DNA of 64,000 nucleotides from Escherichia phage RudolfBernhard_Bas96: sequence record PQ850623.1; one strand, given 5' to 3'. A model generated the notes under the pieces. The model was not told where the DNA came from. It saw nothing but the letters and a program-made list of their open reading frames with translations, and did not search any database. Position numbers and translations under genes: made by a program. Positions 1,927 through 24,657 of the stretch are shown here, piece by piece (within the stretch, counting starts at the first letter, position 1; every line of letters starts with the position of its first letter).

Positions 1927-4197
1927 ATGGAACACCAAGACACTTTTAAGCCTTTACCAGACCCGGCTCAATCAGAGAAGCTAACGGACTGGAAGAAGGA
2001 ACCAAGTATCCAATTACTGAAGGGTGATTTGGAATCAGCTAAACCTGCTCACGATGCAATTATGGCCCAGATTCGTGAGTGGAATGACCTAATGGAAGTC
2101 AAAGGTAAAGCTAAACCCCCAAAGGTTAAAGGTCGTTCACAAGTCCAACCTAGACTGGTTCGCCGTCAGGCAGAGTGGCGATATGCTCCATTGTCCGAGC
2201 CGTTCCTCTCATCTAATAAACTCTTTAAAGTAACTCCAGTTACTTTTGAAGATGAGTTAGCTGCACGTCAGAACGAATTAGTTCTTAACTACCAATTCCG
2301 TACACAGCTTAATAAAGTAAAACTAGTGGATGATTACGTACACAGTGTCGTAGATGACGGTACTGGTATTGCTCGTATTGGTTGGGAACGTAAGACTGTT
2401 AAGATTAAAACAGAAACACCAGTCTTCCAGTTGTATCCAATTGAGAATCAGGAACAGGCAGATGTTCTTCAACAGGCTTTACAGCTCCAGGCTGAGAATC
2501 CTCGTGAGTATGATGAAACTATGCCGGAAGATATTAAAGAAGCTGTTAACTACTTTAATGAAACTGGAGAAGCTACCTATGCAATCCAGACAGGGGTTAC
2601 TGAGGTAGAAGTAGAGAAGGCACTGGTTAACAGACCTACTGTTGAAATGCTTAACCCCAATAACGTAGTTATTGACCCAAGCTGTAATGGCGATTTGGAA
2701 AAGGCTCTGTACGCAGTTATCTCGTTTGAGACATGCAAAGCAGACCTCATGAAGAATAAAGACCGTTATCACAACTTAGATAAGATTGACTGGGAAAGTT
2801 CTAGTCCTATAACTGACCCAGACCATGAGAGTAAAACCCCTAGTGACTTCCAGTTTAAGGATGCACTTCGTAAGAAGGTTGTTGCTTACGAGTACTGGGG
2901 ATTTTACGACATCAATGATGATGGTTCTCTGGAACCAATTGTTGCTACCTGGATTGGTTCTACTCTTATCCGTATGGAGAAGAACCCATTTCCAGATGGT
3001 AAATTACCCTTAGTAGTTGTTCCTTACATGCCTCGTAAACGCGAACTCTTTGGTGAAGCTGACGCTGAACTGCTGGGGGATAACCAAGCAATTCTTGGTG
3101 CAACTATGCGTGGGATGATTGACCTGTTAGGTCGAAGTGCAAATGGACAACGTGGTTATCCTAAAGGGATGTTGGATACACTGAACCGACGTCGATATGA
3201 CGATGGGCAAGACTATGAATATAACCCAATGCAGGGTAATCCTAGTCAGGCCATTATGGAGCATAAGTTCCCTGAGTTACCCCAGTCGGCAATAGTAATG
3301 ACTCAGATGCAAAACCAGGAAGCTGAATCACTAACTGGTGTTAAAGCATTCTCAGGTGGTGTAACTGGTTCAGCTTATGGAGATGTGGCTGCTGGTATTC
3401 GTGGTGCACTTGATGCAGCATCCAAACGTGAGATGGCAATCCTTCGTCGATTAGCTAAGGGTATGGCAGACATTGGTACTAAGATTTGTGCAATGAATGC
3501 TGTGTTCTTATCTGAGAAAGAAGTAGTACGTATTACTAACGAGCAGTATGTAGAGATTAACCGTGAAGACCTTAAAGGTAACTTCGACATTGAGGTTGAT
3601 ATTAATACTGCTGAAATTGATAACCAGAAATCCCAGGACTTGAGCTTCATGGTTCAAACATTGGGTAATACGGTTGACCAAACTATTACGTTATCTCTTG
3701 TAGCTAAGATTGCAGAACTTAAACGTATGCCTGACCTGGCTCATGAGTTACGTACTTGGCAACCACAACCGGACCCTATGGAAGAACAGCTTAAGCAACT
3801 GGCAATTCAGAAAGCACAGCTTGAGAATGAAGAGTTACAAAGCAAGATTGCACTCAATATGGCTAAGGCTAAAGAGGCTGCTTCTGCTGGTGACCTTAAA
3901 GACCTGGATTATCTGGAACAGGAATCTGGTACTAAACATGCCCGTGATATGGAAAAACAAAAAGCACAATCTCAAGGAAACCAGAACCTTCAAATAACTA
4001 AGGCATTGACAACACCTATTAAAGAAGGGGAAACTACCCCCAACATATCTGCAGCTGTTGGATATAATACTTTGACTAACGGGAACTCTATACCAGAACG
4101 TGATTTAGCTGCTCAGCAAGACCCGGCTTATTCACTTAGTTCCCAATACTATGACCCTCGCCAAGACCCAGCATCGGCTCTTGGCATGAACCTGTAA
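1927..4197 (+). CDS. Portal protein (N4 gp59-like)
   Basis: 756-aa ORF with AGGA RBS; size and position (after lysis genes, before scaffold and capsid genes) match N4 late-gene order; no motif check possible by eye. Confidence 0.6.
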
Positions 4198-7081: not shown

Positions 7082-7723
7082 ATGAACATGAGCATTAACG
7101 ATAAACCGACCACTGACGTAGAACTGGACGTACAGGGCAACGAAGATACCGTTAACGATATTGCAATGCCTAGCGAACTTGAAGTTCTTAAGCAACGTGC
7201 AACGTTGATGAATATTAAGTTCTCTAACAACATCTCCGTTGAGAAGCTCCGTGAGAAGATTGAAGCTGCACAAGCAAAAGACGAACCAGAAGTAAAAGAA
7301 TCTGCTGTTAACCCTTTGGGTGAAAAACAGGAAGCTGGTGTTAAGAAAATGACCCTGGGTCAGAAGATTCGTGCAGAACAGACTCGACTGATTCGTGTAC
7401 GTATCCAGAACCTTGATCCCAAGAAGAAAGACCTGCCGGGTGAGATTATCACCGTAGCTAACGAATATATGGGTACTGTACGTAAGTTTGTTCCATTCGG
7501 TGAAGTCACCGACAATGGTTATCATATTCCGTACTGTATTTACGAGTTCCTTAAAGAGCGTAAGTTCATCAACATTACGACTCGTAAAGGTAAGAATGGC
7601 TTACCGGATATCCGTGCAACAGAAGCACGAGAGTTCTCCATTGAAGTATTGCCTCCGCTGACTGAAGCAGAATTGGCTCAACTGGCTCAAGCACAGATTG
7701 CTGCTGGTAGCCTGAACGATTAA
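7082..7723 (+). CDS. Virion-associated protein (N4 gp55-like position)
   Basis: 213 aa; RBS AGGAAA; synteny only. Confidence 0.45.
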   Translation: MNMSINDKPTTDVELDVQGNEDTVNDIAMPSELEVLKQRATLMNIKFSNNISVEKLREKIEAAQAKDEPEVKESAVNPLGEKQEAGVKKMTLGQKIRAEQTRLIRVRIQNLDPKKKDLPGEIITVANEYMGTVRKFVPFGEVTDNGYHIPYCIYEFLKERKFINITTRKGKNGLPDIRATEAREFSIEVLPPLTEAELAQLAQAQIAAGSLND

Positions 7724-7744
7724 CGTATAAGCTACAGTTCAACA

Positions 7745-7781
7745 CGGCTCACTGGGGTAACTCCGTGGGCCGTTTCTTTTT
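7745..7781 (+). terminator. Putative rho-independent terminator
   Basis: 8-bp stem CGGCTCAC/GTGGGCCG (one G-U) with 11-nt loop, followed by TTTCTTTTT. Confidence 0.45.
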
Positions 7782-7799
7782 GAACCAAGAGGAATGATT

Positions 7800-8636
7800 A
7801 TGTCTTGTTCTGCTGAGGTAGAAGCTAACCGACTCCTAGAAGAGTTAACTAAGGGTGATGACTTTACCCTCCCTGACATTGATATGTCTGGTCCTGAATG
7901 GGATATCCCTGGTGGTGATAATTCCCCAATCTTTGATGCTATTACTAAAGTAACAAATGAATCACTTACTACCCGTGAAGTAGGTGGTAGTGGTACGTTT
8001 GATGCATTAATGGAATCTGCACACAATCACCTTAAAGCTGAGTTTAAAGCTAATCGTATTACTGGTGGTGAATATACCAAAGCATACATTGCTATGATGG
8101 AATCGTGCATGAGTAATGCTGTTCAGTTTTTACTTGGTCGTGACCAAGCATACTGGGCTGCTGCTATGGCACAGATTCAGGCAGTTACTGCACGTGTTCA
8201 ATTGGCAACCTCTAAAGCACAGTTTGTACTGGCTAAGATTCAGGCACTGTCTGCTAAGAGTGAATATGCTCTCACTAAGATGAAGATTGCTACCGAGTCT
8301 GAAACATACTGTGCTGCATTGTTTAATGCTGACCAGATGTTACCTCAACAGCTTAAACTGATTACTGAGCAGACCGAAGCACAACGTGCACAGACACTGG
8401 ATACCCGAAGTGATGGGGCTACTGTTACTGGTTCCGTAGGTAAGCAGAAAGAGTTGTACTCTCAACAGATTACTTCTTATCAACGTGATGCAGAAGTTAA
8501 AGCATCTAAGTTGTTTACCGATGCATGGATTACACAGAAGACTATTGATGAAGGCTTGAACCCACCTAATGGTTTCACTAACGCAAGTATTGATACCATT
8601 CTGACCAAGCTGAAGTCTAACAACGGGCTGAACTAA
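7800..8636 (+). CDS. Virion protein (N4 gp54-like position)
   Basis: ORF 7794-8636; ATG at 7800 has better spacing to the AGAGGA RBS; coiled-coil-rich. Confidence 0.5.
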
Positions 8637-8637
8637 T

Positions 8638-11292
8638 ATGGGCTTATTCAGTGGGAAGACCAAAGTATACGTAGCATCCTCTGTCTATAACATGGCAGGG
8701 GATATACACAAACGTCCAAACTATATGAAGACTGTAGTCATCGGTAAGATTGTTGCTGATACAGGATTCACTATGGCAGACACTATCTCTGATAGTTATC
8801 TGAATGGACCGGGTATTCGTATGCGATTGTTCTCCAGCTGGAGTAAGAATCACTATGATTCAGAAGTTGGTATGGCTGGTTCTTCATTAGGTGTACTGGC
8901 TAAGATTGACCCTACTGTTATAGAGGGTCAAATTACTCCACCTGCTGGTGAATCAGTCTATGTTCAGGCAGCAGAGATTGGCTTTGCTGACTTTGAGCAA
9001 TGGTGTGACCAATATCTTTATGAGAATGCCCCAAGTCGAATCATGGAACGATTCGACGTAGACATTGATGAAGATACCAATGAAATTACTATGACCTCCC
9101 TGGATGGGGGTTCTACCATTACATTCACACCTACTAACTTTGAACCAGGTGCTTTGTATCTCTATGCTGATTACACATTCTATAAGTCTCCATCTACCAA
9201 TCCACCGGTAGTAGGACCGACTACTGTCTATGATAGTGAAGGCGACTTACCGTCTACTTTGTTATGGACCACTATCTCAAGCGATACTACAGCTAATACA
9301 ACCAATCTTACTAAGACTATACAGACCCATTCTGTTTACTCTGATGGTAGACCAGATGAAGACAATACTGTCACTGAACCAAGCGTAGATAACTGGAACT
9401 CTTACGTTAAGGTTTATCGTAGAGGGTTTACTGAGAAACCCGATGATGTGACTGTAGTTGTATCTGACAGGGTAATGACTCATAAAAAGTTTGGTGAGGT
9501 TCAGTCCAGTACTACTGTAACTACTAATGTAGTTGATATAGGTGGTGGTGTTACTCGGACTGACACAATCACCACAACTACAGAGACACTGGTTCGTAAG
9601 TATTCATCCCAGACTACCCGTACTGATACAGAGATGACTGCTGTTGGTACACCTAAGATGCTTATCTATAAGCAGAACTCAGGCAACGTTGCACTCGATT
9701 CACTGTTTGAAACTGAGGCTACTGATAACCGATTCTATCCATTCATTCCAATCAGGAATGATAAACAATGGGTAGAGAATGATCCAATCTACCCCCACTG
9801 TAAGAAGGCACTCTATAAAGCTACTGGTGGTAAGCTTGATAAAGTAGTAACCGAGCTTAAGAAGAACGACGACATAGGTGATATCCAGTACATCTATGGC
9901 ACATTCGGTGTATCTCTTAATACTCCAGAAGATACTGCTAAGGAATACATCTACCGTTTCTTTCAGATGGCTACTGAAGCATTCCCACCTGACCCAACCT
10001 ACCCTACATTGGAAGCAGTGATTGCAGGTTATCAGGCAGCAAATGATGCAGTCGATGCATACGTAGAATGGTGGAACAGGCAGGAAGGTCAGATTGTTGG
10101 AACACCTCCTCCCTTGCCAGAATATCCTGTCATACCTAAGCGAGAGTTTAGGGTACATAGTAATAAGCAGTACAAGTATGACATGACTATTGGTTGGAAC
10201 TATGTGTCTGAAACTGCTCATTCTGGTGAAGCATGGTCTGGTGCTAAGCAAGGACAACTTCGAGCCAGATATGCAGGGGATATAACTCTTACTCGTAAGA
10301 ACATACGTACTGCTAGTAACTCTGGTTCGACTAAGAAGCTGGAAGTTACCACTACGTTTTATTCCATGCAGGAGTATGAGTTGCTTTGGCAGGACGGTAA
10401 CAACACCTACCGTAAACTTAGAGTACTGGGTCTGAACCATAACAATAGGGTATATAAAAATAAGTCAGTGAGTATTGATGTTGCTGAAGCAATGGGCGAT
10501 GCAGAAGAGAGTGGGTTCATTATCCCACTACACACTAACATCTACCGTTCAATGTCACTGACTCGTAGTACCCAACTGTCTACTGCCTGTTCCTACTTAG
10601 TTATGAACTCGTATAAGAAGGTTAAACAGAAGTGGTATCAAACCTCTGCCTTTAAGATTGTAGTTGTTGTGGTTGCTGTCGTTGTATCCGTATTCACTAT
10701 GGGTACTGGTGGTGCAGGTATTCTTGGGGCATATGGTGCAGTTGGTGCATCGCTAGGTTTTGTTGGATTGGCTGCTGTAATAGTGGGTGCTGTAGCAAAC
10801 GCCATTGCTGCAATGATTCTGATATCTATTATTACTAAAGTATCCACTTCACTGTTTGGTGATAAGCTAGGTTTTATCATTGCTGCTGTTGCTTCAATGG
10901 TAGCCATGAACGTTGGTACTGCTATGTCTACTGGTACATCCTTATCTACCTTAGCTAGTGAAATGATGAATGCTCAGAACATCATGCAACTTACCAGTTC
11001 AGTAGGTAACGGCATTAGCCAGTATATTAATGCATCTACGGCTGCTACTATTCAGAAAGCAGAGAGTGTAATGCAGCAGTACAATACTGATATGATGGCA
11101 ATCAATAAGCAGTATGAAGAAATGTTTGGTACTGCTGGGCAGGGTGTAATTGACCCCATGCAATTCGTGTCAATGGAGTCGATGGATTCTTTCCTCTCAC
11201 GTACTCTCATGACTGGTTCGGATATAGCTGACATGTCTTTAAACATGGTTGGCAGCTACTCTGATATGACTCTTAATACTGACCTTGTTTAA
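8638..11292 (+). CDS. Large virion/ejection protein with C-terminal multi-TM region (N4 gp53-like position)
   Basis: 884 aa; Thr-rich central region; about 100 residues of contiguous Gly/Ala/Val-rich hydrophobic sequence (VVVVVAVVVSVF...ILISIITKV) near the C-terminus. Confidence 0.5.
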   Translation: MGLFSGKTKVYVASSVYNMAGDIHKRPNYMKTVVIGKIVADTGFTMADTISDSYLNGPGIRMRLFSSWSKNHYDSEVGMAGSSLGVLAKIDPTVIEGQITPPAGESVYVQAAEIGFADFEQWCDQYLYENAPSRIMERFDVDIDEDTNEITMTSLDGGSTITFTPTNFEPGALYLYADYTFYKSPSTNPPVVGPTTVYDSEGDLPSTLLWTTISSDTTANTTNLTKTIQTHSVYSDGRPDEDNTVTEPSVDNWNSYVKVYRRGFTEKPDDVTVVVSDRVMTHKKFGEVQSSTTVTTNVVDIGGGVTRTDTITTTTETLVRKYSSQTTRTDTEMTAVGTPKMLIYKQNSGNVALDSLFETEATDNRFYPFIPIRNDKQWVENDPIYPHCKKALYKATGGKLDKVVTELKKNDDIGDIQYIYGTFGVSLNTPEDTAKEYIYRFFQMATEAFPPDPTYPTLEAVIAGYQAANDAVDAYVEWWNRQEGQIVGTPPPLPEYPVIPKREFRVHSNKQYKYDMTIGWNYVSETAHSGEAWSGAKQGQLRARYAGDITLTRKNIRTASNSGSTKKLEVTTTFYSMQEYELLWQDGNNTYRKLRVLGLNHNNRVYKNKSVSIDVAEAMGDAEESGFIIPLHTNIYRSMSLTRSTQLSTACSYLVMNSYKKVKQKWYQTSAFKIVVVVVAVVVSVFTMGTGGAGILGAYGAVGASLGFVGLAAVIVGAVANAIAAMILISIITKVSTSLFGDKLGFIIAAVASMVAMNVGTAMSTGTSLSTLASEMMNAQNIMQLTSSVGNGISQYINASTAATIQKAESVMQQYNTDMMAINKQYEEMFGTAGQGVIDPMQFVSMESMDSFLSRTLMTGSDIADMSLNMVGSYSDMTLNTDLV

Positions 11293-13726: not shown

Positions 13727-13736
13727 TACTAATAAA

Positions 13737-13757
13737 AGCCCTACGGGGCTTTTTTCT
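13737..13757 (+). terminator. Rho-independent terminator upstream of vRNAP gene
   Basis: Stem AGCCC/GGGCT with TACG loop followed by TTTTTT. Confidence 0.55.
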
Positions 13758-13820
13758 TTAACTGGCTTACTGTAGAGTAAGTTACCTATATACGATATAA
13801 GTTTGAACAGGAAACATGCT

Positions 13821-16800
13821 ATGTCAACATTTGACCGTCTGGCAGGTTTCGCAGACAGCATCACTAATGCTAAGCAAGTCGATGTCTCTACTGCAACCTC
13901 TCAGAAGCAAGCTGCACAAGGGCAAAGCCCTTTCCAATTAACCCCAGAGAATGCTTACAATCTCCAGACCGGACGAGTAGGTAATCTTGGAATCGGTGCA
14001 TTCGAACCAGGTTCACTTCAGGCAGATTTCACTCAAGCCTCCCCATTAGAAATCATTAATAAATACGGTAATGAGCAAGGTTTACAGATTCTTAATAGCC
14101 GAGCTAATGCTGCTGATGTTGTACGTCAGGACTTATCTAAACAACGTACTAACGCAGAAGCATTTGGCGATACTCTTTCTGGTGTTGGTCTTGGTGTTGC
14201 TAATACCCTTGGGGGCATTGCTGCTCTTGGTACAGGTCTGGTCAATGATAATGCCGGGGCATCCATTGCTTCCGGGATGGATTGGTTGAATGAAGGTGTA
14301 CACAATCTACAGTCTGATGCACTGAATGCTACCCGTAAAGTTGTTCAGAATCAGAACCAGATTTCTGCTCAAAAGAACCAGAAACTCTATGAACAAGACA
14401 TCAAAAATGGGGAGAGCGATTTGGTTGCCTCCTTGTCTCGCATTGGTCGTGACGCTTTCGATTCTGTTGCTAACACACTTGATAATGGTATGGCTGTTTC
14501 CGACGGACTGAGTGAAGGTGTTGGTTCTCTCTTTACTGGTGGTCCACTTATCCGTGGTGTATCTGCACTAGGTAAAGTAATGGTAGGGGGTGATAAAGCT
14601 GTTAAGGGTATTACCTTAGCTGCTGGGTTAGGTTCACGTCCTGCACAGGTTGCATTGTCTGCCGGTCGTGTTGCTGCACCTGCTATCGCAATCGGTGGTA
14701 TGGAAGCAGGTGGTGCATACCAACAGACTGCTTCTGAAATCATGAAGATGTCCCATCAAGAACTGGCAAGTAAGTCTCCTGTTTACCAACAACATATTGC
14801 CGATGGTTTATCTCCTGATGAAGCACGACGTCAGGCTGCATCTGAAACAGGTATTATTGCTGCTGGCTTAACTGCTCCAGTTGCTGCTGCTACCGGTCCA
14901 CTGGTATCTCGCTTTGAACTTAACCCACTTAAGGTAGGTTCACTGGCAGGTGCTGGTTCTAATATGCTGCGTGAAACTGTAGAGGAAGGTATTCAATCCG
15001 GCTTTGGTCAGTTCGCACAGAATACTGCAATCAAAGGAAACGTTGATGCATCCCGTGACACCCTCAAAGGGGTTGGTGAGCAGGCAGGTCTTGGTGCACT
15101 TTATGGGTTCGGTAGTGCTGGGGTTGCTCAGGCTCCTGGTGCAACTGTTAAAGCAGTTGGTGCTTCTGCTGGTCCTGCTCTTCGTACTACCCTGGCTGGT
15201 GCTTCTCTGGTTGGTAAAACATTAGCAAAAGCTGCCTCTCCTCTTACTAACATCCTGGTTCAACGTGGTGAAGAAGTTGCTAAGCGTAATGAACAAGCAT
15301 CCCCTGTAGCTGATGCTACGGTTAATGCTGCTGCACAGGAAGCTGCTGCTCAGGCAGAACAAGCACAAGCAACTGTACAGGAAGCAGTAGATGCAATGGA
15401 TATCACTCCAGAAGAGAAAGCTGCTGCTACCCAATACGCTGCTGATTTAACTCAGGCAATGAAGTTTGACCCAGTAGAATTGGAACAAGCTAACCCAGTA
15501 ATCCGTGAAGCTGTTTCTGGCTCTACTAACCGTGTAGAAGCTATTCAGAAGATGGCTGACCTGGTTAATACTGCTGAAGACCCTAACGTTCAAATGGAAG
15601 CTGCAATCCAGATGTATGACAACATCATGTCTATGGATAGCTTCATTAACCGTGACCCAGGTGCACTGGCTAATCTGGAACAAGGTTCTCCTGCTGCTGC
15701 AATCGTAGACCAGTTCTCTGGCTTGATGGCTAACGTACAGAATACCCCTAAAGTACTTCGCGCATTCCGTGCCATCCATTCCATGATTCAGGAACAGGCT
15801 GAAGCAGGTAAATTGAAAGCTACTGAAGAAGCCAATCAAGCCCAAGCAAACAATATTGCTATGGCTGCTGATGTGTCCCCAGAAGTGCTAGATGCAGATT
15901 CAGTGAACATGGTTCTGAAACATGCAAGTGAAGGTAAGATTACATTGGGGAATCGTCAACGTGCTGCCCTGCAATCTGCTGCTGCCTTGTTACAGGGTGC
16001 ACGAGAGTTCGACGCTAAAGCAGAAGAACTAGGCTTACGTCCTCAAGACATTGTTAGTAAACAGATTAAAACCGACGAGTCTCGTTCTAATGAAGGACAG
16101 TACTCTGCGTTGCAACATGCGAAACGCATTCGTTCTGCGTATAACTCTGGTAACTTCGATTTGGCCTCCGCTTATCTGAGCGACTTTATGAAGTTCGCCC
16201 AGCACATGCAGAATAAGGTCGGAGCGTTGAATGAGCATCTGATTTCGGGGAATGCGGATAAGAATAAGTCTGTTCATTATCAGGCTCTCTCGCCTTCCCG
16301 TGAATGGGTACGTAGTCGTACTGGCCTCGGTGTCAATCCGTATGATACCAAATCTGTTAAGTTTGCCCAGCAAGTAGGACTGGAGGCCAAAACCGTAGCT
16401 GATATTGCTAATGCACTTGCTACGGCTTACCCGGAGCTTAATGTTTCTCATGTGAAGGTTACCCCATTGGATTCACGTCTGGACAAGCCTGCTGCCCAGG
16501 TAGTTAAAGAGTTCCGTCAAGGTGGTCTTGATGCCACTCAGTCTCAACAGACTAATGAACCAGTGAATCAGGTTGATGAAACTCCTGCACCAGTGCAAGA
16601 GGACACTACTACTGTACAGCCTAAAGCTAAACCAGTGGTAGAAAATAAGACTGCTCCTACTAAGGAGACTAGTCCAAAAACAGAAGAAGTCTCTACTACT
16701 AAGCCTGAAACAGTAGATGCTACCCTTACTAATGAGGATACCATCGAGCAACCTACTGAATCGGAAAGAGATGCTTATGTGAAAGAGAATACTATTTCAC

Positions 16801-19800
16801 AAGATACTCTTAATAAGTATGGTGACCGTAGAGAGAGTCCATGGCTCTTTGCTGATGGTACTGTTGTTGGTTCTAACGGTGACCATATCAGTCTGTCTGA
16901 TGTATTTGGTCATGATGGTTATCGTGATATGTCCTTGGATACTGGTGCTATTCGCTCTACTTTCTATAAAGGTAGTGAGCAACCATTTGTATCTCTGCAA
17001 TTGTTTGATAATCAGAAGTTGACTGCTGAACAATTCAATACTGTTCAATCTTTCGTTGAAGCCAATAATGCACAGATTCTGGTTGGTGTAGATACCTCTG
17101 GTCGTAACACTAACAACGTGGAGAAAGATGAGGTATCACTGGCTCAGCTAAAAGCAGGTTATACTGTTGGTGGTAAACCTCTGTCTGAAATGGAAACAGT
17201 GTTCCCTGTCTATAACAATGAAAAGACACCGAACCAGTTCCTGAAAGCATTCTCTCTGCCGGAAGAACCTAAGTCTCGTACCATTGGTTCCGAATCCCCT
17301 TTAGCTGATATTAAGCAAGCACTCTCTTCTGCTGCTCGCTTTGAAGCATTTACTCAAAAAGAAAATAACGCTCTCACAGGTGATGTGTTAAAACGCTATC
17401 AAGACTTGATGGACTTTGGGGAAACTCTGAAGACTACTTTGTCTGAACGACTGGCTAAGTTCCTTGCTAACAAAAATGTTGGTAAACGTTTTGCAGAAGG
17501 TACTGAAGCTAACCGTTGGGTAGGTGGTAAGTTACTTAACATCGTAGAGAAAGATGGAGATACCTTTAAGTTTAATGATCAGTTGTTAGAGACTGCTGTA
17601 CTTGCTGGTCTGCAATGGCGACTAACTGCTACACAGAATGCTGCCATTAAAGATATGAAAGACGTAGCTGCTATTACTGGTGTAGAAGCATCTCTGTTAC
17701 CAGAAGGCATTCTGGCTGAGTTCGAGAATGCCCAGACTTTAGTAGAAGCTACTAGCTCACTGGCTCAGAAGATTGAATCCTACTGGGGTTTGAATCGTAA
17801 CCCTAATGCACCACTGGGTTATACCAAGGGTATTCCAGTGGCAATGGCTACAGAGATTTTGTCTTCCCTCATTGAGATGGGTGCAGTTACTGAGACTATG
17901 CTGGATGTGTCTGAGATTGACCCAGACTCTAATAAGACTGTTGGTCTGTACACTATTAATAAGTTGGCTGATAAAGACCCTATTAATAATTTCCCTACAG
18001 CAATTGAAGAAGCTGTTTTGGTAAACCCGGAAGAGAAAATGTACTTTGGTGATGACATTCCTTCCGTGGCTCAAACTCAGTTACGTAACCCTGCTGTTAA
18101 GAACACCCCTGAACAGAAAGCTGCACTGAAAGCCGAACAGGCTACCGAGTTCCGTGTACACATGCCGATGGTTAACTTCTATGAAGCTTTAGGCCGTGAC
18201 AACATTCTGGAACTAATGGGTGCTGGTACTCTTAATCCTGATTTGCTGAATAAGAACAATGCTAAATCACTGGAAGGTAAGAACTTATCAGTATCTATGG
18301 CATATGATTCCTTGTTTGGTTTAATTAATCAGCTAAAAGAACAAGAGAATGGTTTGGATACCCCTATTCACTATGGCTATAACATGACCCGAGTAGGTCG
18401 TATGCAGATGCTTGGTAAGAACAACCCACAATCCAGTAAGCTGGTTCGTGAAGCAATTCTGCCAACCTTCTCTACTATTGACTTGAGTAATGAAAACAGC
18501 CAAGCGTTCTCTGACTTCCAGTTAGGACTGGCTCAGGCATTAGGCATCAAGGTACACAAAATGTCCCGTGAAGCTATGGCCGAAGAGTTGACTAAAGCTC
18601 TGGAAGGTAAACTGAAACCTGCTGTTGATATGATGGTTGAGTTCGATAAGTCTGGTTACTTACCTACAGATGCAGTAGATATTCTGAAGACCTCTCTGGG
18701 TGATAACAAATCCTTCGTAGCTCTCATGGCTCTGATGGAATATGCCCGTTACCTGAACAGTGATGACCGTGCCAACTTTACTACTCCCCTGTACGTTGAA
18801 GCTGATGGTGTAACCAACGGCCCAATCAACGCAATGGTATTAATGACTGGTGGTAAGTTCACTTCGGACTGGATTAAGAATACTGCCAAAGGTGGTTTGT
18901 TCTTCGGTCGTGCTGGTAAAACGATGAACGAACATTGTTCTATTGACGATAATGTTGACCTGTATGAAGCATCTACTAATGGTCTGCAATTTTATCTAAA
19001 TGAGTTACGTACTACTTACCGTAACAATATTCCGGTTATGAGCCAGATGAATCATCTCCAGAAGTTAATGGATTTGTTCATTAAAGATTTTAACCTGAAT
19101 GAAGACGGTACTCTGGACCTGAAACGTGGCATCGCTAAAAACCCCCTGACCATTACCATCTACGGTTCTGGTGCTCGTGGTATTGCTGGCAAGATGGTTA
19201 GTGCAATCACTGACACCATCTACGAACGCCTCAGTGACGTTCTACAAGCACGGGCTGCTGACCCTAGCATTTCCCCAGCTATGGCAATGTTTGGTAAGGA
19301 GGCTGCGTCTGAGGCAGATGCTCAGGCTATGCTGAATACCTTCCTTACTTCTATGGAAGCACTGACCGGTAAGATTCCAGCTAAGCGTAAAGGTAAGTTA
19401 TTTATTAAGGAAGTAGATGGTGCTCTGACTGGTGAGCTAGATCCCCAGGAGTTTACTGTATCTGGTGATGCCCTTAAGAACTTACAAGAGAATATGTTGC
19501 ACTTCTTCGTTGAACCAATGAGACAAAGTATCCGGTTCACCGTTGGTGAAGGTCTGATGCACTCCACTGAGAACTTACAGAAGGCTACCCAGATTCAGTC
19601 TCTGGTATTGCAGGATATGTTCCAACAAGCAGTACAAGCTAAGCTGGCAGAAAAAGAAAAAGACCCATCCTGGAAGAAGGGTGATTTCTTAACACAGAAA
19701 GAACTGAATGAAATTCAGAAATCATTGTCTCCACTGGCTCCAATGATTGAGACTGGTTCACAGACTTTCTACATTGCAGGAAGTGAGAATACTGATGTTG

Positions 19801-22800
19801 CTAACCAAGTACTGGCTACCAACTTAGATGACCGTATGCGTGTGCCAATGAGCATCTATGCTCCTTCACAGGCAGGCGTTGCAGGTATTCCATTTATGAC
19901 CATTGGTACTGGTGATGGCATGATGATGCAGACCCTTTCTACTATGAAAGGTGCTCCGAAGAATACCCTGAAAATCTTTGATGGTATGAACATTGGTATC
20001 AATGACATCACTGATGCAAGCCGTAAAGCTAATGAGGCTGTATATACTTCCTGGCAGGGCAACCCTATTAAGAACGTGTATGACTCCTTCTCTAAGTTCA
20101 TGAAGAACGTAGACTTTAATAAGTTGTCAGATAAGACAATTGATGACATTGCCCGTTCTGCTTTAGATTTTGAACAGCTTTCTCATATCAGTCGTGTTGA
20201 GGGAGACAGGCAGTATAAGATTGATATGATTAAGAATTCCGGTGTTAACCTTATTGAACGTAACTTGCGTAACATTGCTCTGGGTGTAGATATTCGTCAC
20301 AAAGTAATGAACCAAGTACAGACCACTGTTGACCAGATGGCTGCTGTGGGTGCTCCTTATGTGAACAACGGTAAAATCTCTCTGGAAGGTCTGACTGTAG
20401 ACCAGCAAGTAGCTAAGCTGAACGAACTGTTCGATGCTGAATTAAACAAGCGTCGTGATGCAGTACGTGCTGCTAAAGCAGAACCAGTGAAAGAAGTACC
20501 AGTTATGGAACAAGTTGGTCGTGTACTTAAGTCTGGTGTACGTCTGTTATCTAATACTGCTATCACTAAGCTGGGTAAAGAGATGACCCCTGAACAACAA
20601 GCAGTATTGAAAGAAGTACAGAAATCCCTTGCTGCTAAAGACTACAAGGTTGTTTACGGTACTCCTGCTCAACTGGATGCTTACGCTATTGAGAAGAATA
20701 TTACTCGTCCTGCACCGGAAGATATTGAAGCTGCTGAAGCTGGTAATGCGTATGGCTGGACTAACTTTGATGATAAGACCATCTACTTAGTTACCCCTTC
20801 TTTAGAGACTCTGGTTCACGAACTGGTACATGCTTCTACTTTTGAATCTGTACTGGCTCACTATGAGGGTACTCCTAATGAAGCAGTCCAGAATATTGAA
20901 GACCTGATGAACCAGTTCCGTACTCTGGATGTTAAGAACGAATCCCCGGCAGTACGTGAAGCATATGCTGATGCACTCAATACCATTAATGGTCACTTGT
21001 CTAATGGCTTCATTGAACCAGCAATGGCTAAAGCTGCTGCACTGAATGAGTACATGGCATGGGGCTTAACCAACCGTGAACTGATTGGTAAGCAGAAGAA
21101 GACTACTGCACTGAAGACTATGGTTCAGTCTGTATATGAAGCAATTAAGCGTCTGGTATTTGGGCGTAAGAAAGCACCTGCTAATGCAGATGATATGTTC
21201 TCTGGCTTACTGTTTAACTCTTCAGTAGTTATGCGTGGACAGGCTCCTACGGCTGCTGTATCCAAGGACACTACCTTGTTTCATAACAAGGCATACGGTG
21301 ACAATACCCGTCTGGAAGAGTTGGGACAGACTTTTGATAAACTGATTACTAACTACATTGGTTCTGAACCAGTACAGCAAGTAATTCGTAAAGGTAAGTT
21401 CTCTGATGCAGTAGTGAATGCAACTAAAGTAACTCGTGATGTTCAGGCTCACGGCTTTACCATGAATATGCAGGAACAGCGACTGTTTACTAATATCGTT
21501 GCTGCTTTGGCTACTGAAGCTGCTATTAGCCCGGCTGCTCTTTCTCGTGCACAGGAATATTACGCACACGTCACCAAGAACCTGACCGTTGAAGCATTCA
21601 TGGCTGACCCGGATAGTACTAACCCTGCTGACCGTTATTATGCTCAGCAGAAGTTCGATACTATCATGGGGGCTAACAACATTGAGTTTGATGCACAGGG
21701 TCATTCTTCCTTACTGCCTACCTTTGTTGGTCTGGCAATGGTAAGTGAAGAGGTGCGTAACGTACTGGCTAACATTCCTGTTATGAAAGCAGATAAGAAA
21801 TCTGGTAATACCATTGATGCAATGCTGACTAACATCGGTACTGCTGCAATGTCTAGTCTGAATGCTCGTGTAGCTGGTGATACCAAAGCTACCAACGTAC
21901 AGGAAGGTATGGATGCACTGGCTCAGACAATCATGCAGACTAGCTTAAATGCACAGTCATTCTATGATTCCGTTGCTACACCTAGTGGTAATGCTATTGA
22001 CCGTGCTAATCAGTATCTGGTGGATTCTATTGATGTACTGTCTACTCGTGCTTTAGAAAGTGCCCGTGAAGTTGCAGCTAATACCAAGAATCCATTGGTT
22101 AAGGGTGCTGCTCATGCTGCACAACTGGTAGCTGCCATTGCTACAGAGAAGAATGGTGCAATCGTAGCCGAAGGTGTTATGGCTGCAATGAACCAGGGCA
22201 AGGTATGGCAACCTTTCCACGACTTGGTTAATGACTTAACCGGTCGTACTAAGAGTAATGCTTCTGTGTATGATTTGATTAAAGCAGTTCGTGCACAGGT
22301 ACAAGCAGACCGTCAGCAGTTCCGTGAACATCTGCCTACCACTATTGCATCTAAGTTCAGCCGTAAGCTGACTAATGATGAGTGGAAAGCAATGTACACT
22401 GGTATGGGTAAAACTGACTTAGCTGTTCTGCGTGACACCATGTCTCTGGCTGAAATCCGTGACCTACTGTCTGACCAAAAGATCGTTGACCGTGAAGTGA
22501 ATAAGCTGGAAGCAGATTTGCAGAAGCAAGCTGGTCGTAACTGGCCTCTTATTAGCCGTAAATCTAAGCAACTGGCTCAGTACATGATTAACGGTACAGT
22601 CGGCAATAACCTGCTGCGTAATGCTACTGCAATCTCTCGTATGCTGGGTGAACGTCAGGCTGCTCGCTCTACTGTAGATGTAGCTCAACTGGATAAACTG
22701 ATTACCCTGTATGCACTGGAAGCAATGAATAAGTCTGACCGTGAGATGTTATCTTCACTGGCTCAGGCAGAAGTTGATGGAATGGACTTTGCTACTTCTT

Positions 22801-24620
22801 ACCTGGTTGGTCAGCGTAAAGATGAAATGGCTAAAGCCAAGTCTGATATGCGTGCAACCCTGAACCAGTACAAAGGGCATATCCCTAGTGAGACTAAACA
22901 GAGTGTTAATCTGATTGTTGCTGAAGATAGTCAGTTTGCTGATTTGATTGAGAAGTCCTATGTACGTCTGGGTACTTATCAAGGTAGCTCTGCTAATCGT
23001 GGTCCGGCACGTAGTTACTACTTTGCACCAGTACAGGCACAGGCTCCTTTCTCACAGGGTATCCTACAGAACGTTCGTAATACTGCTGGTGGTGTAGACC
23101 TCGGCACAGGCTTTACGATGGGTTCGATGGTAGCTGGTCGTATTACTGACAAGCCTTCCGTAGACCGTATTACTAAAGCACTGGCTCGTGGTGAACGTGG
23201 TAATGAACCACTGCTGCCTGTGTATGATGACAAAGGTAATGTAGTTGCTTATGAGCAATCTATTGACCCCAACATGCTGAAGCACATTGAAGGTGAAAAC
23301 CACCTTGCCCGTGCAATTGGTGTATGGCGTGGTCGTCAGGTGGAAGAAGCTAAGGCTCAGCGTTTCAACGATATGCTGATTGAGAACCTGCATAGCATGT
23401 ATGAGAATGACATTAAGATGTCTGCCTCTAACAAGTCCCAGTATGTGAACCTTCTTGGTTCTAAACTGGATCCAGTAACTGCTGATGCTCTTAAGCTAAT
23501 GAACAGTGAAACCCGTCAGAAAGCAGAAAGTCTGTTTGGTGAGGGTGAACTGTGGGTACGTCGTGACATGCTGAATGATGCACTTGGTTATCGTGCAGCT
23601 TCTGTTGGTGATGCCTGGTCTGGTAATTCTCGTTGGTCCCCGGAAACTCTGGATACTTTCAAGAAAGCTATGCTGGGTGTATTTGGCAACCGTGCTTATA
23701 AGTACACAATGGGTGGAGAGAACCTGGTTCAAAACTTAGTTAAAGAAGCCAAGACTCTGATTGTAGTTAAGTCAGTAGTCGTACCTGCTGTTAACTTCTT
23801 GGCTAACCTTTACCAGATGGTTGCTCGTGGTGTACCGGTTAAGAACATTGCTAAGAGCATTCCACAGAAGACTGCTGAGATTAACCAGTACCTTAAATCT
23901 CGTCTGCGTCAGGTAGATGCAGAAGCAGAATTACGTGCAGCTACTAACCCGAACCAGATTCGTAAACTTAAGGCTGAGATTCAGTCCATTACTGATAGTC
24001 ATAAGCGTATGAGTATCTGGCCTCTGTTAGAAGCCGGTGAGTTCTCTTCTATTGCAGATGCTGGCATCGGTCGTGATGACATCCTGATTACTGAGGGCAA
24101 ACTTCATGAATACATGGAAAAACTGGCTGATAAGTTACCTAAGTCTGTACGTACTGCCGGACGCTATGCACTTATCACTAAAGATACTGCTCTGTTCCAG
24201 GGTATCCAGAAGACAGTTGAGTACTCTGACTTTATCGCTAAAGCAATCATCTATGATGAACTGACTCAGCGTAAAGGTAAGACTCGTGAAGAAGCACTTG
24301 GACGTGTAACGGAAGAGTTTGTTAACTATGACCGTCTGCCGGGTCGCTTCCGTGGGTATATGGAAAGTGTTGGTTTAATGTGGTTCTACAACTTTAAGAT
24401 TCGTTCAGCTAAGGTTGCAGTGTCCATGATTCGTAATAACCCGGTACACGCAGCAATGGCTATGTTGGCTCCAACCCCTACCATGTTTGGTAACGTTGGT
24501 CTGCCTATTCAAGACAACATCTTTAGCATTGCTGCTAAAGGTAGTCTGGATTACTCATGGGGCTTTGGTCAGGGGCTTCGTGCACACAACCTGAACCCTT
24601 GGATGAACCTGGTAAACTAA
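13821..24620 (+). CDS. Virion-encapsidated RNA polymerase (vRNAP, N4 gp50-like)
   Basis: Single 3599-aa ORF (track begins at TTG 13803; ATG 13821 follows AGGAAA RBS); central region has a T7-like motif B (KRGIAKNPLTITIYGSGARG); size is diagnostic of N4-like phages. Confidence 0.85.
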   Translation: MSTFDRLAGFADSITNAKQVDVSTATSQKQAAQGQSPFQLTPENAYNLQTGRVGNLGIGAFEPGSLQADFTQASPLEIINKYGNEQGLQILNSRANAADVVRQDLSKQRTNAEAFGDTLSGVGLGVANTLGGIAALGTGLVNDNAGASIASGMDWLNEGVHNLQSDALNATRKVVQNQNQISAQKNQKLYEQDIKNGESDLVASLSRIGRDAFDSVANTLDNGMAVSDGLSEGVGSLFTGGPLIRGVSALGKVMVGGDKAVKGITLAAGLGSRPAQVALSAGRVAAPAIAIGGMEAGGAYQQTASEIMKMSHQELASKSPVYQQHIADGLSPDEARRQAASETGIIAAGLTAPVAAATGPLVSRFELNPLKVGSLAGAGSNMLRETVEEGIQSGFGQFAQNTAIKGNVDASRDTLKGVGEQAGLGALYGFGSAGVAQAPGATVKAVGASAGPALRTTLAGASLVGKTLAKAASPLTNILVQRGEEVAKRNEQASPVADATVNAAAQEAAAQAEQAQATVQEAVDAMDITPEEKAAATQYAADLTQAMKFDPVELEQANPVIREAVSGSTNRVEAIQKMADLVNTAEDPNVQMEAAIQMYDNIMSMDSFINRDPGALANLEQGSPAAAIVDQFSGLMANVQNTPKVLRAFRAIHSMIQEQAEAGKLKATEEANQAQANNIAMAADVSPEVLDADSVNMVLKHASEGKITLGNRQRAALQSAAALLQGAREFDAKAEELGLRPQDIVSKQIKTDESRSNEGQYSALQHAKRIRSAYNSGNFDLASAYLSDFMKFAQHMQNKVGALNEHLISGNADKNKSVHYQALSPSREWVRSRTGLGVNPYDTKSVKFAQQVGLEAKTVADIANALATAYPELNVSHVKVTPLDSRLDKPAAQVVKEFRQGGLDATQSQQTNEPVNQVDETPAPVQEDTTTVQPKAKPVVENKTAPTKETSPKTEEVSTTKPETVDATLTNEDTIEQPTESERDAYVKENTISQDTLNKYGDRRESPWLFADGTVVGSNGDHISLSDVFGHDGYRDMSLDTGAIRSTFYKGSEQPFVSLQLFDNQKLTAEQFNTVQSFVEANNAQILVGVDTSGRNTNNVEKDEVSLAQLKAGYTVGGKPLSEMETVFPVYNNEKTPNQFLKAFSLPEEPKSRTIGSESPLADIKQALSSAARFEAFTQKENNALTGDVLKRYQDLMDFGETLKTTLSERLAKFLANKNVGKRFAEGTEANRWVGGKLLNIVEKDGDTFKFNDQLLETAVLAGLQWRLTATQNAAIKDMKDVAAITGVEASLLPEGILAEFENAQTLVEATSSLAQKIESYWGLNRNPNAPLGYTKGIPVAMATEILSSLIEMGAVTETMLDVSEIDPDSNKTVGLYTINKLADKDPINNFPTAIEEAVLVNPEEKMYFGDDIPSVAQTQLRNPAVKNTPEQKAALKAEQATEFRVHMPMVNFYEALGRDNILELMGAGTLNPDLLNKNNAKSLEGKNLSVSMAYDSLFGLINQLKEQENGLDTPIHYGYNMTRVGRMQMLGKNNPQSSKLVREAILPTFSTIDLSNENSQAFSDFQLGLAQALGIKVHKMSREAMAEELTKALEGKLKPAVDMMVEFDKSGYLPTDAVDILKTSLGDNKSFVALMALMEYARYLNSDDRANFTTPLYVEADGVTNGPINAMVLMTGGKFTSDWIKNTAKGGLFFGRAGKTMNEHCSIDDNVDLYEASTNGLQFYLNELRTTYRNNIPVMSQMNHLQKLMDLFIKDFNLNEDGTLDLKRGIAKNPLTITIYGSGARGIAGKMVSAITDTIYERLSDVLQARAADPSISPAMAMFGKEAASEADAQAMLNTFLTSMEALTGKIPAKRKGKLFIKEVDGALTGELDPQEFTVSGDALKNLQENMLHFFVEPMRQSIRFTVGEGLMHSTENLQKATQIQSLVLQDMFQQAVQAKLAEKEKDPSWKKGDFLTQKELNEIQKSLSPLAPMIETGSQTFYIAGSENTDVANQVLATNLDDRMRVPMSIYAPSQAGVAGIPFMTIGTGDGMMMQTLSTMKGAPKNTLKIFDGMNIGINDITDASRKANEAVYTSWQGNPIKNVYDSFSKFMKNVDFNKLSDKTIDDIARSALDFEQLSHISRVEGDRQYKIDMIKNSGVNLIERNLRNIALGVDIRHKVMNQVQTTVDQMAAVGAPYVNNGKISLEGLTVDQQVAKLNELFDAELNKRRDAVRAAKAEPVKEVPVMEQVGRVLKSGVRLLSNTAITKLGKEMTPEQQAVLKEVQKSLAAKDYKVVYGTPAQLDAYAIEKNITRPAPEDIEAAEAGNAYGWTNFDDKTIYLVTPSLETLVHELVHASTFESVLAHYEGTPNEAVQNIEDLMNQFRTLDVKNESPAVREAYADALNTINGHLSNGFIEPAMAKAAALNEYMAWGLTNRELIGKQKKTTALKTMVQSVYEAIKRLVFGRKKAPANADDMFSGLLFNSSVVMRGQAPTAAVSKDTTLFHNKAYGDNTRLEELGQTFDKLITNYIGSEPVQQVIRKGKFSDAVVNATKVTRDVQAHGFTMNMQEQRLFTNIVAALATEAAISPAALSRAQEYYAHVTKNLTVEAFMADPDSTNPADRYYAQQKFDTIMGANNIEFDAQGHSSLLPTFVGLAMVSEEVRNVLANIPVMKADKKSGNTIDAMLTNIGTAAMSSLNARVAGDTKATNVQEGMDALAQTIMQTSLNAQSFYDSVATPSGNAIDRANQYLVDSIDVLSTRALESAREVAANTKNPLVKGAAHAAQLVAAIATEKNGAIVAEGVMAAMNQGKVWQPFHDLVNDLTGRTKSNASVYDLIKAVRAQVQADRQQFREHLPTTIASKFSRKLTNDEWKAMYTGMGKTDLAVLRDTMSLAEIRDLLSDQKIVDREVNKLEADLQKQAGRNWPLISRKSKQLAQYMINGTVGNNLLRNATAISRMLGERQAARSTVDVAQLDKLITLYALEAMNKSDREMLSSLAQAEVDGMDFATSYLVGQRKDEMAKAKSDMRATLNQYKGHIPSETKQSVNLIVAEDSQFADLIEKSYVRLGTYQGSSANRGPARSYYFAPVQAQAPFSQGILQNVRNTAGGVDLGTGFTMGSMVAGRITDKPSVDRITKALARGERGNEPLLPVYDDKGNVVAYEQSIDPNMLKHIEGENHLARAIGVWRGRQVEEAKAQRFNDMLIENLHSMYENDIKMSASNKSQYVNLLGSKLDPVTADALKLMNSETRQKAESLFGEGELWVRRDMLNDALGYRAASVGDAWSGNSRWSPETLDTFKKAMLGVFGNRAYKYTMGGENLVQNLVKEAKTLIVVKSVVVPAVNFLANLYQMVARGVPVKNIAKSIPQKTAEINQYLKSRLRQVDAEAELRAATNPNQIRKLKAEIQSITDSHKRMSIWPLLEAGEFSSIADAGIGRDDILITEGKLHEYMEKLADKLPKSVRTAGRYALITKDTALFQGIQKTVEYSDFIAKAIIYDELTQRKGKTREEALGRVTEEFVNYDRLPGRFRGYMESVGLMWFYNFKIRSAKVAVSMIRNNPVHAAMAMLAPTPTMFGNVGLPIQDNIFSIAAKGSLDYSWGFGQGLRAHNLNPWMNLVN

Positions 24621-24622
24621 AT

Positions 24623-24657
24623 TAAAAAAGCCCCTCAAATGAGGGGCTTCTATTTTA
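24623..24657. terminator. Bidirectional terminator between convergent late (+) and early/middle (-) units
   Basis: Stem AAGCCCCTC/GAGGGGCTT with AAAT loop, A-run on the left and T-rich run on the right. Confidence 0.7.

Follow-up and report, generated by a model that had tools for sequence, protein, structure and literature searches.

The DNA analysed here, a stretch of 64,000 nucleotides of Escherichia phage RudolfBernhard_Bas96 (PQ850623.1; hereafter the window), contains a giant gene whose product is about 100 residues longer than gp50, the virion RNA polymerase (vRNAP) of coliphage N4, and this raises the question of what the extra residues are. On the plus strand, a single uninterrupted ORF extends from 13821 to 24620 and encodes 3599 aa plus a stop codon (24618-24620), as the preliminary description had reported, and the excess over the 3500 aa of N4 gp50 is 99 residues, close to its estimate. 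The longest version of the frame begins with a TTG at 13803 and gives 3605 aa; the ATG at 13821, which gives 3599 aa, yields the N-terminus MS(T/V)FDRLAGF, as in N4 and G7C. The ribosome binding site lies in a block, GATATAAGTTTG-A-AGGAAAC, that is kept in N4. The gene and its ribosome binding site are as follows.

13821..24620, plus strand: coding sequence of the gp50-type virion RNA polymerase (ORF, PDB matches with E=0 and annotated relatives)
13809..13812, plus strand: Shine-Dalgarno-like AGGA, read from the sequence, 8 nt 5' of the ATG

A PDB sequence search aligned the whole protein with the full-length N4 gp50 structures 9PNR and 11GP (E=0). The protein is 94.5% identical to G7C gp50 over 3599 aligned residues and 66.6% identical to N4 gp50, and the coding sequence shares 92-94% nucleotide identity with the annotated virion RNA polymerase genes of F22, E20, and G7C. 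The gene order gp53-gp52-gp51-gp50 is common to the window, G7C, and N4, with ORFs of 884, 154, and 654 aa preceding gp50 in the window on the same strand; N4-like vRNAPs, a hallmark of the Schitoviridae, are each encoded by a single ORF of about 3400-3750 aa, and in the window too this ORF closes the ejection-protein operon after the gp52 and gp51 homologs. The genome is G7C-like and of the N4 family, and the gene is orthologous to N4 gp50 and of the Gamaleyavirus (G7C) type. The gene is already known: its annotation dates back to the sequencing of G7C and has been repeated in dozens of phages. The polymerase itself is routine and is now understood structurally from its N4 counterpart; a length of about 3600 aa is simply the usual vRNAP size in one G7C-like subgroup (3604 aa in E20, 3609 in F22, and 3748 in G7C).

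The assignment to the N4-type virion RNA polymerases had been made to depend on the alignment of the central domain with N4 mini-vRNAP, and it was upheld by structure and family matches alike. Residues 1136-2216 aligned with the mini-vRNAP structures 2PO4, 3C2P, and 3Q0A (E=0), and four vRNAP Pfam domains were found far over their cut-offs (vRNAP_plug, 9e-25; N4_RNAP_helical, 4e-100; vRNAP_dom_2, 3e-57; vRNAP_dom, 1e-51), including the vRNAP-specific plug insertion and helical domain. The polymerase domain and its motifs are located as follows.

17187..20480, plus strand: single-subunit RNA polymerase domain, the mini-vRNAP equivalent (aa 1123-2220; structure and Pfam matches)
18399..18401, plus strand: R1527 of the T/DxxGR motif (TRVGR), mapped from mini-vRNAP R424
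18804..18806, plus strand: motif A catalytic Asp D1662, mapped from mini-vRNAP D559
19125..19163, plus strand: motif B (R1769, K1773, Y1781), mapped from mini-vRNAP R666, K670, and Y678
19980..19982, plus strand: motif C catalytic Asp D2054, mapped from mini-vRNAP D951

The residue numbers of the N4 motifs are reportedly those of Kazmierczak et al. 2002, a paper cited in PMC5512222. The polymerase domain is 70.8% identical to that of N4, and alignment to N4 showed that R1527, D1662, R1769, K1773, Y1781, and D2054 are all conserved in identical local contexts, the context of motif A being TPLYVEADGVTNGPI in both phages. The three motif B residues lie within RGIAKNPLTITIYG, at 49% of the protein length, which agrees with the earlier placement of this motif in the central third. 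The promoter-contact residue W1233 (mini-vRNAP W129) is also conserved.

On either side of the polymerase lie the two terminal domains.

13821..16523, plus strand: N-terminal domain (NTD, aa 1-901), aligned to N4 aa 1-906 with 60.4% identity
20511..24617, plus strand: C-terminal domain (CTD, aa 2231-3599), aligned to N4 2123-3500 with 69.2% identity and covered by 9PNR and 11GP
20817..20831, plus strand: HELVH (HExxH) of a predicted zincin-like metallopeptidase module (aa 2333-2337), found by motif search

The NTD of N4 inserts in nanodiscs, and its residues 224-278 are predicted to span the membrane (PMC13434306); the NTD of the window holds a homologous Gly/Ala-rich hydrophobic stretch around aa 220-300. 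The HExxH of the CTD has its counterpart at 2228 in N4, and the assignment of this vRNAP module to the zincin-like metallopeptidases (MPTase) comes from PMC5512222. That the terminal domains mediate ejection and encapsidation, as had been proposed, agrees with the older literature as summarised there; further functions come from papers of 2026, namely autoinhibition of the polymerase by the CTD and membrane insertion of the NTD (PMC13434306, PMC13492108). By orthology with N4, for which these roles were shown, gp50 of the window would be packaged in the capsid and leave it ahead of the DNA, would be anchored in the inner membrane, as is thought, through its NTD, and would use its central single-subunit polymerase, which is T7-like, for transcription of the early genes from promoters in hairpin form, while the CTD would be needed for encapsidation and would autoinhibit the polymerase.

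The gene is flanked by two hairpins.

13734..13759, plus strand: intrinsic-terminator-like hairpin (8-bp stem, TACG loop) with a T-tract, between gp51 and gp50 (terminator scan)
24626..24651, no single strand: bidirectional hairpin terminator directly 3' of the stop codon (scan; the equivalent is annotated in G7C)

Convergent transcription units meet at the downstream hairpin. Upstream, a terminator had been placed at 13737-13757; the hairpin is real, but these coordinates were about 3 nt off, and the stem-loop (AAAAGCCC-TACG-GGGCTTTT, followed by TTCTTT) occupies 13734-13753. It folds with an energy of -12 kcal/mol (z = -2.15 relative to shuffled sequences). It is identical in G7C, SP5M, and KKP3715 and near-identical in N4, which has a TTCG loop, and phage B2 has a counterpart that differs in its stem bases. 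Most likely, this hairpin would attenuate late transcription and keep the output of polymerase below that of gp51. The copy numbers behind this idea are about 4 polymerases per virion in N4 and a decamer of gp51. Full termination combined with an atypical late promoter for gp50 is the alternative; the scan found no sigma-70-like promoter between the hairpin and the ATG.

With the three domains aligned to N4, the extra residues were found between the NTD and the polymerase.

16524..16772, plus strand: linker 1 (aa 902-984), of low complexity and rich in T/E/K/Q/P (composition)
16773..17162, plus strand: inserted globular alpha/beta domain (aa 985-1114, about 130 aa), from indel mapping against N4, G7C, and SP5M

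The N4 counterpart of linker 1 is the low-complexity linker 907-1006; according to PMC13434306, its 100 disordered residues tether the RNAP to the membrane-bound NTD, and the protein resembles beads on a string. In comparison with N4, the sole indel of more than 9 aa falls at aa 996-1133, and about 22 disordered residues are all that N4 has in place of the folded domain of about 130 aa of the window protein; the alignment with SP5M skips straight over the insert. The 99-residue excess over N4 is almost wholly one domain at the C-terminal end of the NTD-RNAP linker. Literature searches found no account of a G7C-type linker insert in the papers that could be reached.

The insert was present in 28 of the 119 vRNAP-bearing phage records. 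The other 91 records come from phages of Escherichia, Shigella, Klebsiella, Achromobacter, Stenotrophomonas, Burkholderia, Pseudomonas, and Xanthomonas, and the Gamaleyavirus relatives among them have flanks that are about 90-93% identical. Because many related, apparently viable phages are without the insert, it is dispensable for the core function of the vRNAP.

We predicted the structure of the insert with AF2. With an alignment of 19 sequences, the model reached a pLDDT of 88.5 and a pTM of 0.80, with order throughout residues 1-130 of the insert; it supersedes a single-sequence run with a pLDDT of 52. The insert is predicted to be a compact alpha/beta domain, an alpha/beta sandwich. A discrete, polymorphic, in-frame insertion within an essential gene might also be a selfish element, for instance a mini-intein, which splicing would remove from the mature protein, and introns or homing elements are known in other polymerase genes of G7C-like phages (bioRxiv 10.1101/542787). 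However, the junctions (...DAT|LTNED... and ...KPLSE|METV) carry no intein signatures: there is no block A initiated by Cys, Ser, or Thr, and no His-Asn followed by Cys, Ser, or Thr at the C-terminal junction. The insert also has no endonuclease or Hint-like Pfam match, its predicted fold is not Hint, and its homologs, of which one is free-standing, occur in many unrelated proteins and at positions that do not correspond. We rejected this explanation on the junction sequence and the predicted fold and regard it as extremely improbable.

No family match to the insert was found in Pfam (including the LPD models), NCBIfam, PADLOC, or the PDB, and the window copy had no match in PHROG. An AHJR-like Pfam match (E=0.23) was below significance, and the domain is without a PD-(D/E)xK signature; fold searches against the PDB and BFVD gave recurrent echoes of gelsolin/ADF, archaeal Hjc, and splicing endonuclease folds, all weak and under significance, and these candidates were set aside. 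An exhaustive HMMER search collected 21 homolog clusters, with phmmer E-values from 1e-46 to 1e-4 against the 20 other clusters. The proteins that contain the homologs carry SLT, SNF2 helicase, methyltransferase, ddrB-ParB, LPD22, LPD38, LPD39, InPase, and TrwC/Mob relaxase domains. P0010 is a free-standing homolog of 166 aa and the sole protein that the homolog search returned with the domain alignment, P0003 lies in the late region of a temperate phage, and P0011 is a distant vRNAP. Among plasmids, one distant copy came to light, on a Vibrio plasmid, in a MobC-adjacent LPD7 protein whose LPD7 annotation covers another region than the copy. A degenerate DNA pattern, SPWL..DG(7)DH, searched in viral contigs matched in two high-GC contigs only, with no ORF of at least 150 aa over the match. 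As judged from sequence, the family is otherwise found in large polyvalent proteins of phages, conjugative relaxases of the TrwC/Mob type, and a distant vRNAP. The insert belongs to this small unnamed family, and by domain content and some gene context, its other members occur in proteins of the kinds that enter cells with invading DNA. Taken jointly, it is highly probable that the gene is the gp50 ortholog and that the insert is a discrete folded domain of a family associated with polyvalent proteins.

Eight columns (S1006, P1007, L1009, G1013, D1021, H1022, R1045, and Q1071) do not vary among 19 sequences whose identity to the window copy is 23-59%. The core of the domain reads S-P-(W/Y)-L, D-G, G-D-H, T-G-A-(I/L)-R, and a Q in an L-T-x-x-Q helix, and the window copy has all eight invariant residues. 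The presence of D, D-H, R, and Q among the invariant residues hints at a site of catalysis or ligand binding. The family is small, and these residues may have been kept for structure and not for function. This conservation bears on another explanation, in which the insert is only a structural spacer, an inactive bead that makes the tether between the NTD and the RNAP longer or stiffer, for example to suit the geometry of the envelope or the ejectosome. The linker does vary freely in length and sequence, with an identity of 51% to N4 and 70% to G7C, compared with 95% elsewhere; a second, unrelated insert is tolerated in the same linker of G7C, relatives without the insert exist, and no catalytic fold was recognised in it. 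A mere spacer, however, would not keep eight invariant, largely polar residues across relaxases, polyvalent proteins of the SNF2/methylase kind, and a stand-alone protein, and the free-standing P0010 cannot be a spacer. We consider the spacer explanation unlikely.

We also weighed whether the domain was ancestral to the vRNAPs and was lost in N4, in SP5M-like phages, and in most other lineages, instead of being a mobile module of recent acquisition. P0011, which is 23-24% identical overall, has the domain at the same junction, just before the polymerase, with an alignment that spans the junction. This position is compatible with ancestral presence followed by repeated loss. Against such a history stand the absence of the domain from 91 of 119 records across several host genera and the flips between presence and absence among phages whose flanks are about 90-93% identical. 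The nearest homologs (61-67% identical) sit in non-vRNAP polyvalent proteins, and the GC3 of the insert is 0.27 compared with 0.37 for the whole gene. In addition, an analogous second insert in G7C (insert 2) is 75% identical to its copy in a phage of another subfamily, Shigella phage B2, the vRNAPs being otherwise barely alignable. An ancestral origin with many losses appears improbable to us, and insert 2 has evidently been exchanged horizontally.

We prefer to regard the insert as an exchangeable passenger module that would ride on the ejected polymerase and be delivered with it. It would be small enough to travel through the tail channel like a further bead on the string, and once inside, it would work next to the incoming DNA, where the ejectosome opens into the cytoplasm. 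Its most likely role would be counter-defence or the handling of incoming DNA; the specific proposal that it is an effector acting in the host is offered tentatively. More speculative still, and somewhat doubtful as a whole, is the extended proposal that the NTD-RNAP linker of schitovirus vRNAPs is a general landing pad for cargo modules and that the insert is an effector injected into the host, with D/D-H/R/Q residues that serve in catalysis or ligand binding, and which may act at the ejectosome exit in the first seconds, for example against host defence or on the entering DNA end, and may do the same job on relaxases and polyvalent proteins.

These results indicate that the 100-aa linker that is 'invisible' in the 2026 structures of N4 is more than a tether, since small folded modules occupy it in natural relatives. 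The modules are swapped between phages and are common to injected polyvalent proteins and to the relaxases of other mobile elements. Near-isogenic phages exist with the module (PhAPEC5, E20, and G7C) and without it (PhAPEC7, SP5M, and KKP 3715), and therefore the function of a domain delivered with the DNA can be tested directly. The insert would also allow a test of the beads-on-a-string model of ejection, namely of the size of bead that the channel tolerates.

Among known systems, the vRNAPs of the Gamaleyavirus phages G7C, E20, F22, PhAPEC5, Bp4, and St11Ph5 are the closest, being the same gene at the same operon position and carrying the same insert domain at 92-97% identity; E20 is 98% identical around the linker. 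N4 gp50 (2PO4, 3C2P, 9PNR, and 11GP) shares with the window the three-domain architecture, the polymerase motifs, the plug, the HExxH of the CTD, and the position of the linker, and N4 also shares the upstream terminator hairpin and the conserved ribosome binding site block. Insert 2 of G7C and Shigella phage B2 is likewise a compact module, not of low complexity, in the same linker; it adds about 140 aa in G7C (3748 aa in total), is unrelated in sequence to the insert studied here, and is absent from the window. Iyer, Burroughs, Anand, de Souza, and Aravind (2017) classed N4-like vRNAPs, with their MPTase, as polyvalent proteins, used N4 gp50 as a worked example, and reported ART, lysozyme, or PBECR1 fusions in some N4-like vRNAPs (PMC5512222); the part of that paper covered here contains no vRNAP with a module in the NTD-RNAP linker. 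Polyvalent proteins unite domains of disparate biochemical activity in one polypeptide and are encoded among late or packaging genes, and the gene of the window combines an RNAP, a predicted HExxH MPTase, and the insert domain in one ORF of a late ejection operon. The large polyvalent proteins of phages and conjugative elements are giant and multidomain, like the protein studied here, which would likewise be delivered with the DNA, and the insert domain is shared with proteins that carry LPD22, LPD38, LPD39, InPase, SLT, SNF2, methylase, ddrB-ParB, and relaxase domains.

The gp50 gene of the window occupies one plus-strand ORF with its stop at 24618-24620, and the longest version of this ORF starts at TTG 13803 (3605 aa). 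Translation from the ATG at 13821 begins as in N4 and G7C gp50 (MSTFDRLAGF vs MSVFDRLAGF). This ATG is preceded by AGGA 8 nt 5' of it and gives the giant 3599-aa ORF claimed by the preliminary description, which is confirmed from ATG 13821 to the stop. The protein, described there as about 100 residues longer than N4 gp50 (3500 aa), is longer by exactly 99. The features discussed are as follows.

Features of the gp50 region and of the virion RNA polymerase (vRNAP); residue numbers are those of the window protein
13734-13753 (element 13734-13759), hairpin between gp51 and gp50: AAAAGCCC-TACG-GGGCTTTT, then TTCTTT
13821-24620, plus strand, gp50, vRNAP
aa 985-1114, inserted domain in linker 1, between NTD and polymerase domain
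W1233, -11G-stacking Trp, mapped from N4, conserved
R1527, T/DxxGR motif, mapped from N4, conserved
D1662, motif A, mapped from N4, conserved
R1769, K1773 and Y1781, motif B, mapped from N4, conserved
D2054, motif C, mapped from N4, conserved
aa 2333, HExxH of the predicted zincin-like CTD module, found in the sequence; module assignment from PMC5512222
24626-24651, strong bidirectional hairpin terminator with an 11-bp stem, directly after the gp50 stop

The window comes from a coliphage of the G7C-like type (Gamaleyavirus, Enquatrovirinae, Schitoviridae). Over nucleotides 17000-21000 it shares 92-94.5% identity with phages F22, E20 and G7C, whose records name the gene virion RNA polymerase, and the gp53-gp52-gp51-gp50 gene order is common to the window, G7C and N4. 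At the protein level, identity is 94.5% to G7C gp50 and 66.6% to N4 gp50 (for N4 by region: NTD 60%, polymerase 71%, CTD 69%). A search of PDB sequences gave E=0 to the cryo-EM entries of full-length N4 vRNAP (9PNQ/R/T/V/W and 11GP/11GO/11FW) and, over aa 1136-2216, to the mini-vRNAP crystal structures 2PO4, 3C2P and 3Q0A, so that the identification as an N4-type vRNAP is clearly upheld. Four vRNAP-specific Pfam domains scored far above threshold. Catalytic and contact residues were located by mapping N4 residues through the alignment, which placed motifs A, B and C, and every residue checked was conserved in an identical local context. The gene was already known, with annotations in dozens of genomes; the preliminary description was correct but ordinary. 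Among deposited orthologs, those of U1G, PD205, ST4, UE-M6 and PBM-2 are mislabelled 'DNA polymerase', those of ECBP1 and phi G17 are recorded as 'gram positive anchor domain protein' and 'translation initiation factor 2', and that of pSb-1 is split into two hypothetical proteins.

The terminator reported upstream of gp50 is a real hairpin (fold energy -12 kcal/mol, z = -2.15 against dinucleotide shuffles), but its coordinates, given as 13737-13757, were about 3 nt off. The hairpin is identical in G7C, SP5M and KKP 3715 and near-identical in N4, where the loop alone differs (TTCG), and phage B2 has in its place a hairpin of equivalent form whose stem bases differ (TCCCTC...GAGGGA); this conservation with compensatory change argues for function. 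It is unannotated in the G7C GenBank record. Since N4 contains about 4 vRNAP copies per virion versus a decameric gp51, the simplest reading is that the hairpin would attenuate read-through into gp50. Scanning with a promoter consensus turned up nothing of the sigma-70 type between this hairpin and the gp50 ATG. The late promoters of N4 are atypical, and a dedicated gp50 promoter is therefore possible despite the empty scan. Just 5' of the gp50 start, the block GATATAAGTTTG(A/T)A(C/T)AGGAAAC (13780-13815), which contains the RBS, is kept in N4 and the G7C-like phages, in contrast to the diverged intergenic sequence around it; TATAAG inside this block is possibly a -10-like element. The terminator at 24626-24651 stands where gp50 meets minus-strand genes transcribed towards it, and the G7C record annotates the corresponding pair.

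Through a three-way MAFFT alignment, we found that indels of more than 9 aa relative to N4 were confined to one region (window aa 996-1133 vs N4 1004-1024), at the C-terminal end of the ~100-aa low-complexity linker between the NTD and the polymerase (N4 907-1006), which is invisible in both 2026 cryo-EM studies of N4 (PMC13434306; PMC13492108). In SP5M, an insert-less Gamaleyavirus (vRNAP 3443 aa), ...TVDAT-QEVVETKTE runs straight into METVFPVYNNEK..., whereas the window has ~150 residues at this point. The linker is rich in T, E, K, Q and P; the insert, by contrast, reads as normal globular sequence, and its GC3 (0.27) is below that of the whole gene (0.37). AlphaFold2 with a 19-sequence alignment predicted aa 985-1114 as a compact alpha/beta domain (mean pLDDT 88.5, pTM 0.80), followed by ~25 low-confidence residues leading into the polymerase. 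These results show that the window linker carries an extra autonomous domain of ~130 aa. Outside the linker, indels of at least 4 aa relative to N4 are limited to a 9-aa insertion near the C-terminal end of the polymerase domain (20190-20216, aa 2125-2133), 4-5-aa deletions around the RNAP-CTD linker (N4 2106-2118 and 2246-2250), and a 4-aa gap at aa 267.

A tblastn search with aa 850-1250 returned 119 phage records, 28 of which covered the insert; all 28 were G7C-like Escherichia or Shigella phages, with 92-97% identity in the insert. It was lacking in the Gamaleyaviruses PhAPEC7, ST4, KKP 3715, NAN33P5, UE-S5b, PGN829.1, phi G17 and SP5M, whose flanks are ~90-93% identical, in IME11 (flanks 87% identical), and in all N4-like, KP8-like, Achromobacter, Stenotrophomonas, Burkholderia and Pseudomonas relatives of this set. 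The change between presence and absence is recent; a rival account holds that the domain is ancestral and has been repeatedly lost. The pattern across the 119 records indicates that ~3600 aa is the usual vRNAP length in one subgroup (E20, 3604 aa; F22, 3609 aa).

G7C gp50 (3748 aa) differs from the window vRNAP in carrying a second module of ~140 aa, unrelated to the insert and slightly upstream in the same linker (G7C gp50 aa 969-1109, about 8290-8715 of the G7C locus; non-low-complexity). It had no match in a Pfam search and a weak PHROG match to 'HTH DNA binding' (E=0.039). The phage collection contains just one further copy, 75% identical, in the vRNAP of Shigella phage B2 (4001-4342 of the B2 locus), an Ithacavirus from a subfamily other than that of G7C. 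Outside the module the two vRNAPs are barely alignable, suggesting that a linker module was horizontally exchanged and that the linker behaves as a landing pad for such modules.

The inserted domain matches no named family: the window copy had no match in Pfam at E<=10 (best E among all 19 aligned members, 0.042) or in PHROGs; NCBIfam and PADLOC gave only noise, and a profile search of PDB sequences had E=0.032 as its best value. When 1.84 billion cluster representatives were searched exhaustively with phmmer, 21 clusters matched, which include fragments of the same vRNAP.

Proteins carrying the inserted domain
P0003, 3675 aa: SLT, SNF2 helicase, methyltransferase, LPD39; gene follows tail genes and precedes the lysis cassette in an integrase-bearing phage
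P0004, 3253 aa: methyltransferase, ddrB-ParB, LPD39
P0005 and P0016: LPD38
P0007: LPD22
P0009: SLT
P0014: InPase
P0018: TrwC relaxase, with the domain between relaxase and helicase parts
Vibrio plasmid protein, 1417 aa: MobC-adjacent 'LPD7 domain' protein, with the domain at ~1082-1217, separate from LPD7 at 699-777
P0010: free-standing 166-aa protein beside a large ParB
P0011: 3597-aa vRNAP only 23-24% identical to the window vRNAP, with the domain in the same position and the alignment continuing into the polymerase

All other detected members lie in multidomain proteins of kinds delivered with DNA, except one free-standing copy. This copy (7294-7794 of metagenome contig ERZ23491061, which looks like a phage) is flanked by an unannotated 239-aa gene, with a DNA_pol_B_exo2 gene one further upstream, and by a 585-aa ParB_N/HTH_ParB gene; a Prok_Ub/Prok-E2/JAB/ThiF cluster lies a few genes away. 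An intein-like selfish element, another way in which the insert might be read, is effectively ruled out by the junction sequence, the fold and the family distribution.

An N4 virion contains 4 +/- 1 copies of its vRNAP, which leaves through the gp51/gp52 channel as a series of loosely connected 'beads', stays anchored to the membrane by its NTD and linker, and refolds to transcribe early genes, with the CTD as autoinhibitor (PMC13434306, PMC13492108); by strong orthology, all of this probably carries over to the window vRNAP. The insert would be a passenger module, its ~130 aa well below the 250-300-aa bead size proposed for a ~30-35 Å channel. It would be held ~10-25 residues from the polymerase N-terminus, and so after ejection would be placed at the ejectosome's cytoplasmic mouth, beside the incoming DNA. 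Eight alignment columns are invariant (S1006, P1007, L1009, G1013, D1021, H1022, R1045 and Q1071) and three nearly so (D1002, D1012 and G1042); among the invariant ones, the acidic, His, Arg and Gln residues hint at a binding or catalytic site. The insert may alternatively be a pure spacer, and its most likely role, as a passenger module, would be in counter-defence or in handling the end of the entering DNA. Phages with and without the insert exist in nature, so that its function can readily be tested.

In the searchable literature we found no description of the length difference as a discrete, polymorphic folded module, from an unnamed polyvalent-protein-associated family, in vRNAP linker 1. 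The Pfam partner domains of the insert are exactly those defining the 'polyvalent proteins' of Iyer et al. 2017, which are injected or conjugatively transferred together with DNA (PMC5512222). N4 gp50 is a worked example there, and some N4-like vRNAPs also carry ART, lysozyme or PBECR1 modules (PMC5512222); the insert extends this known principle, that vRNAPs are polyvalent proteins, and founds no new one.
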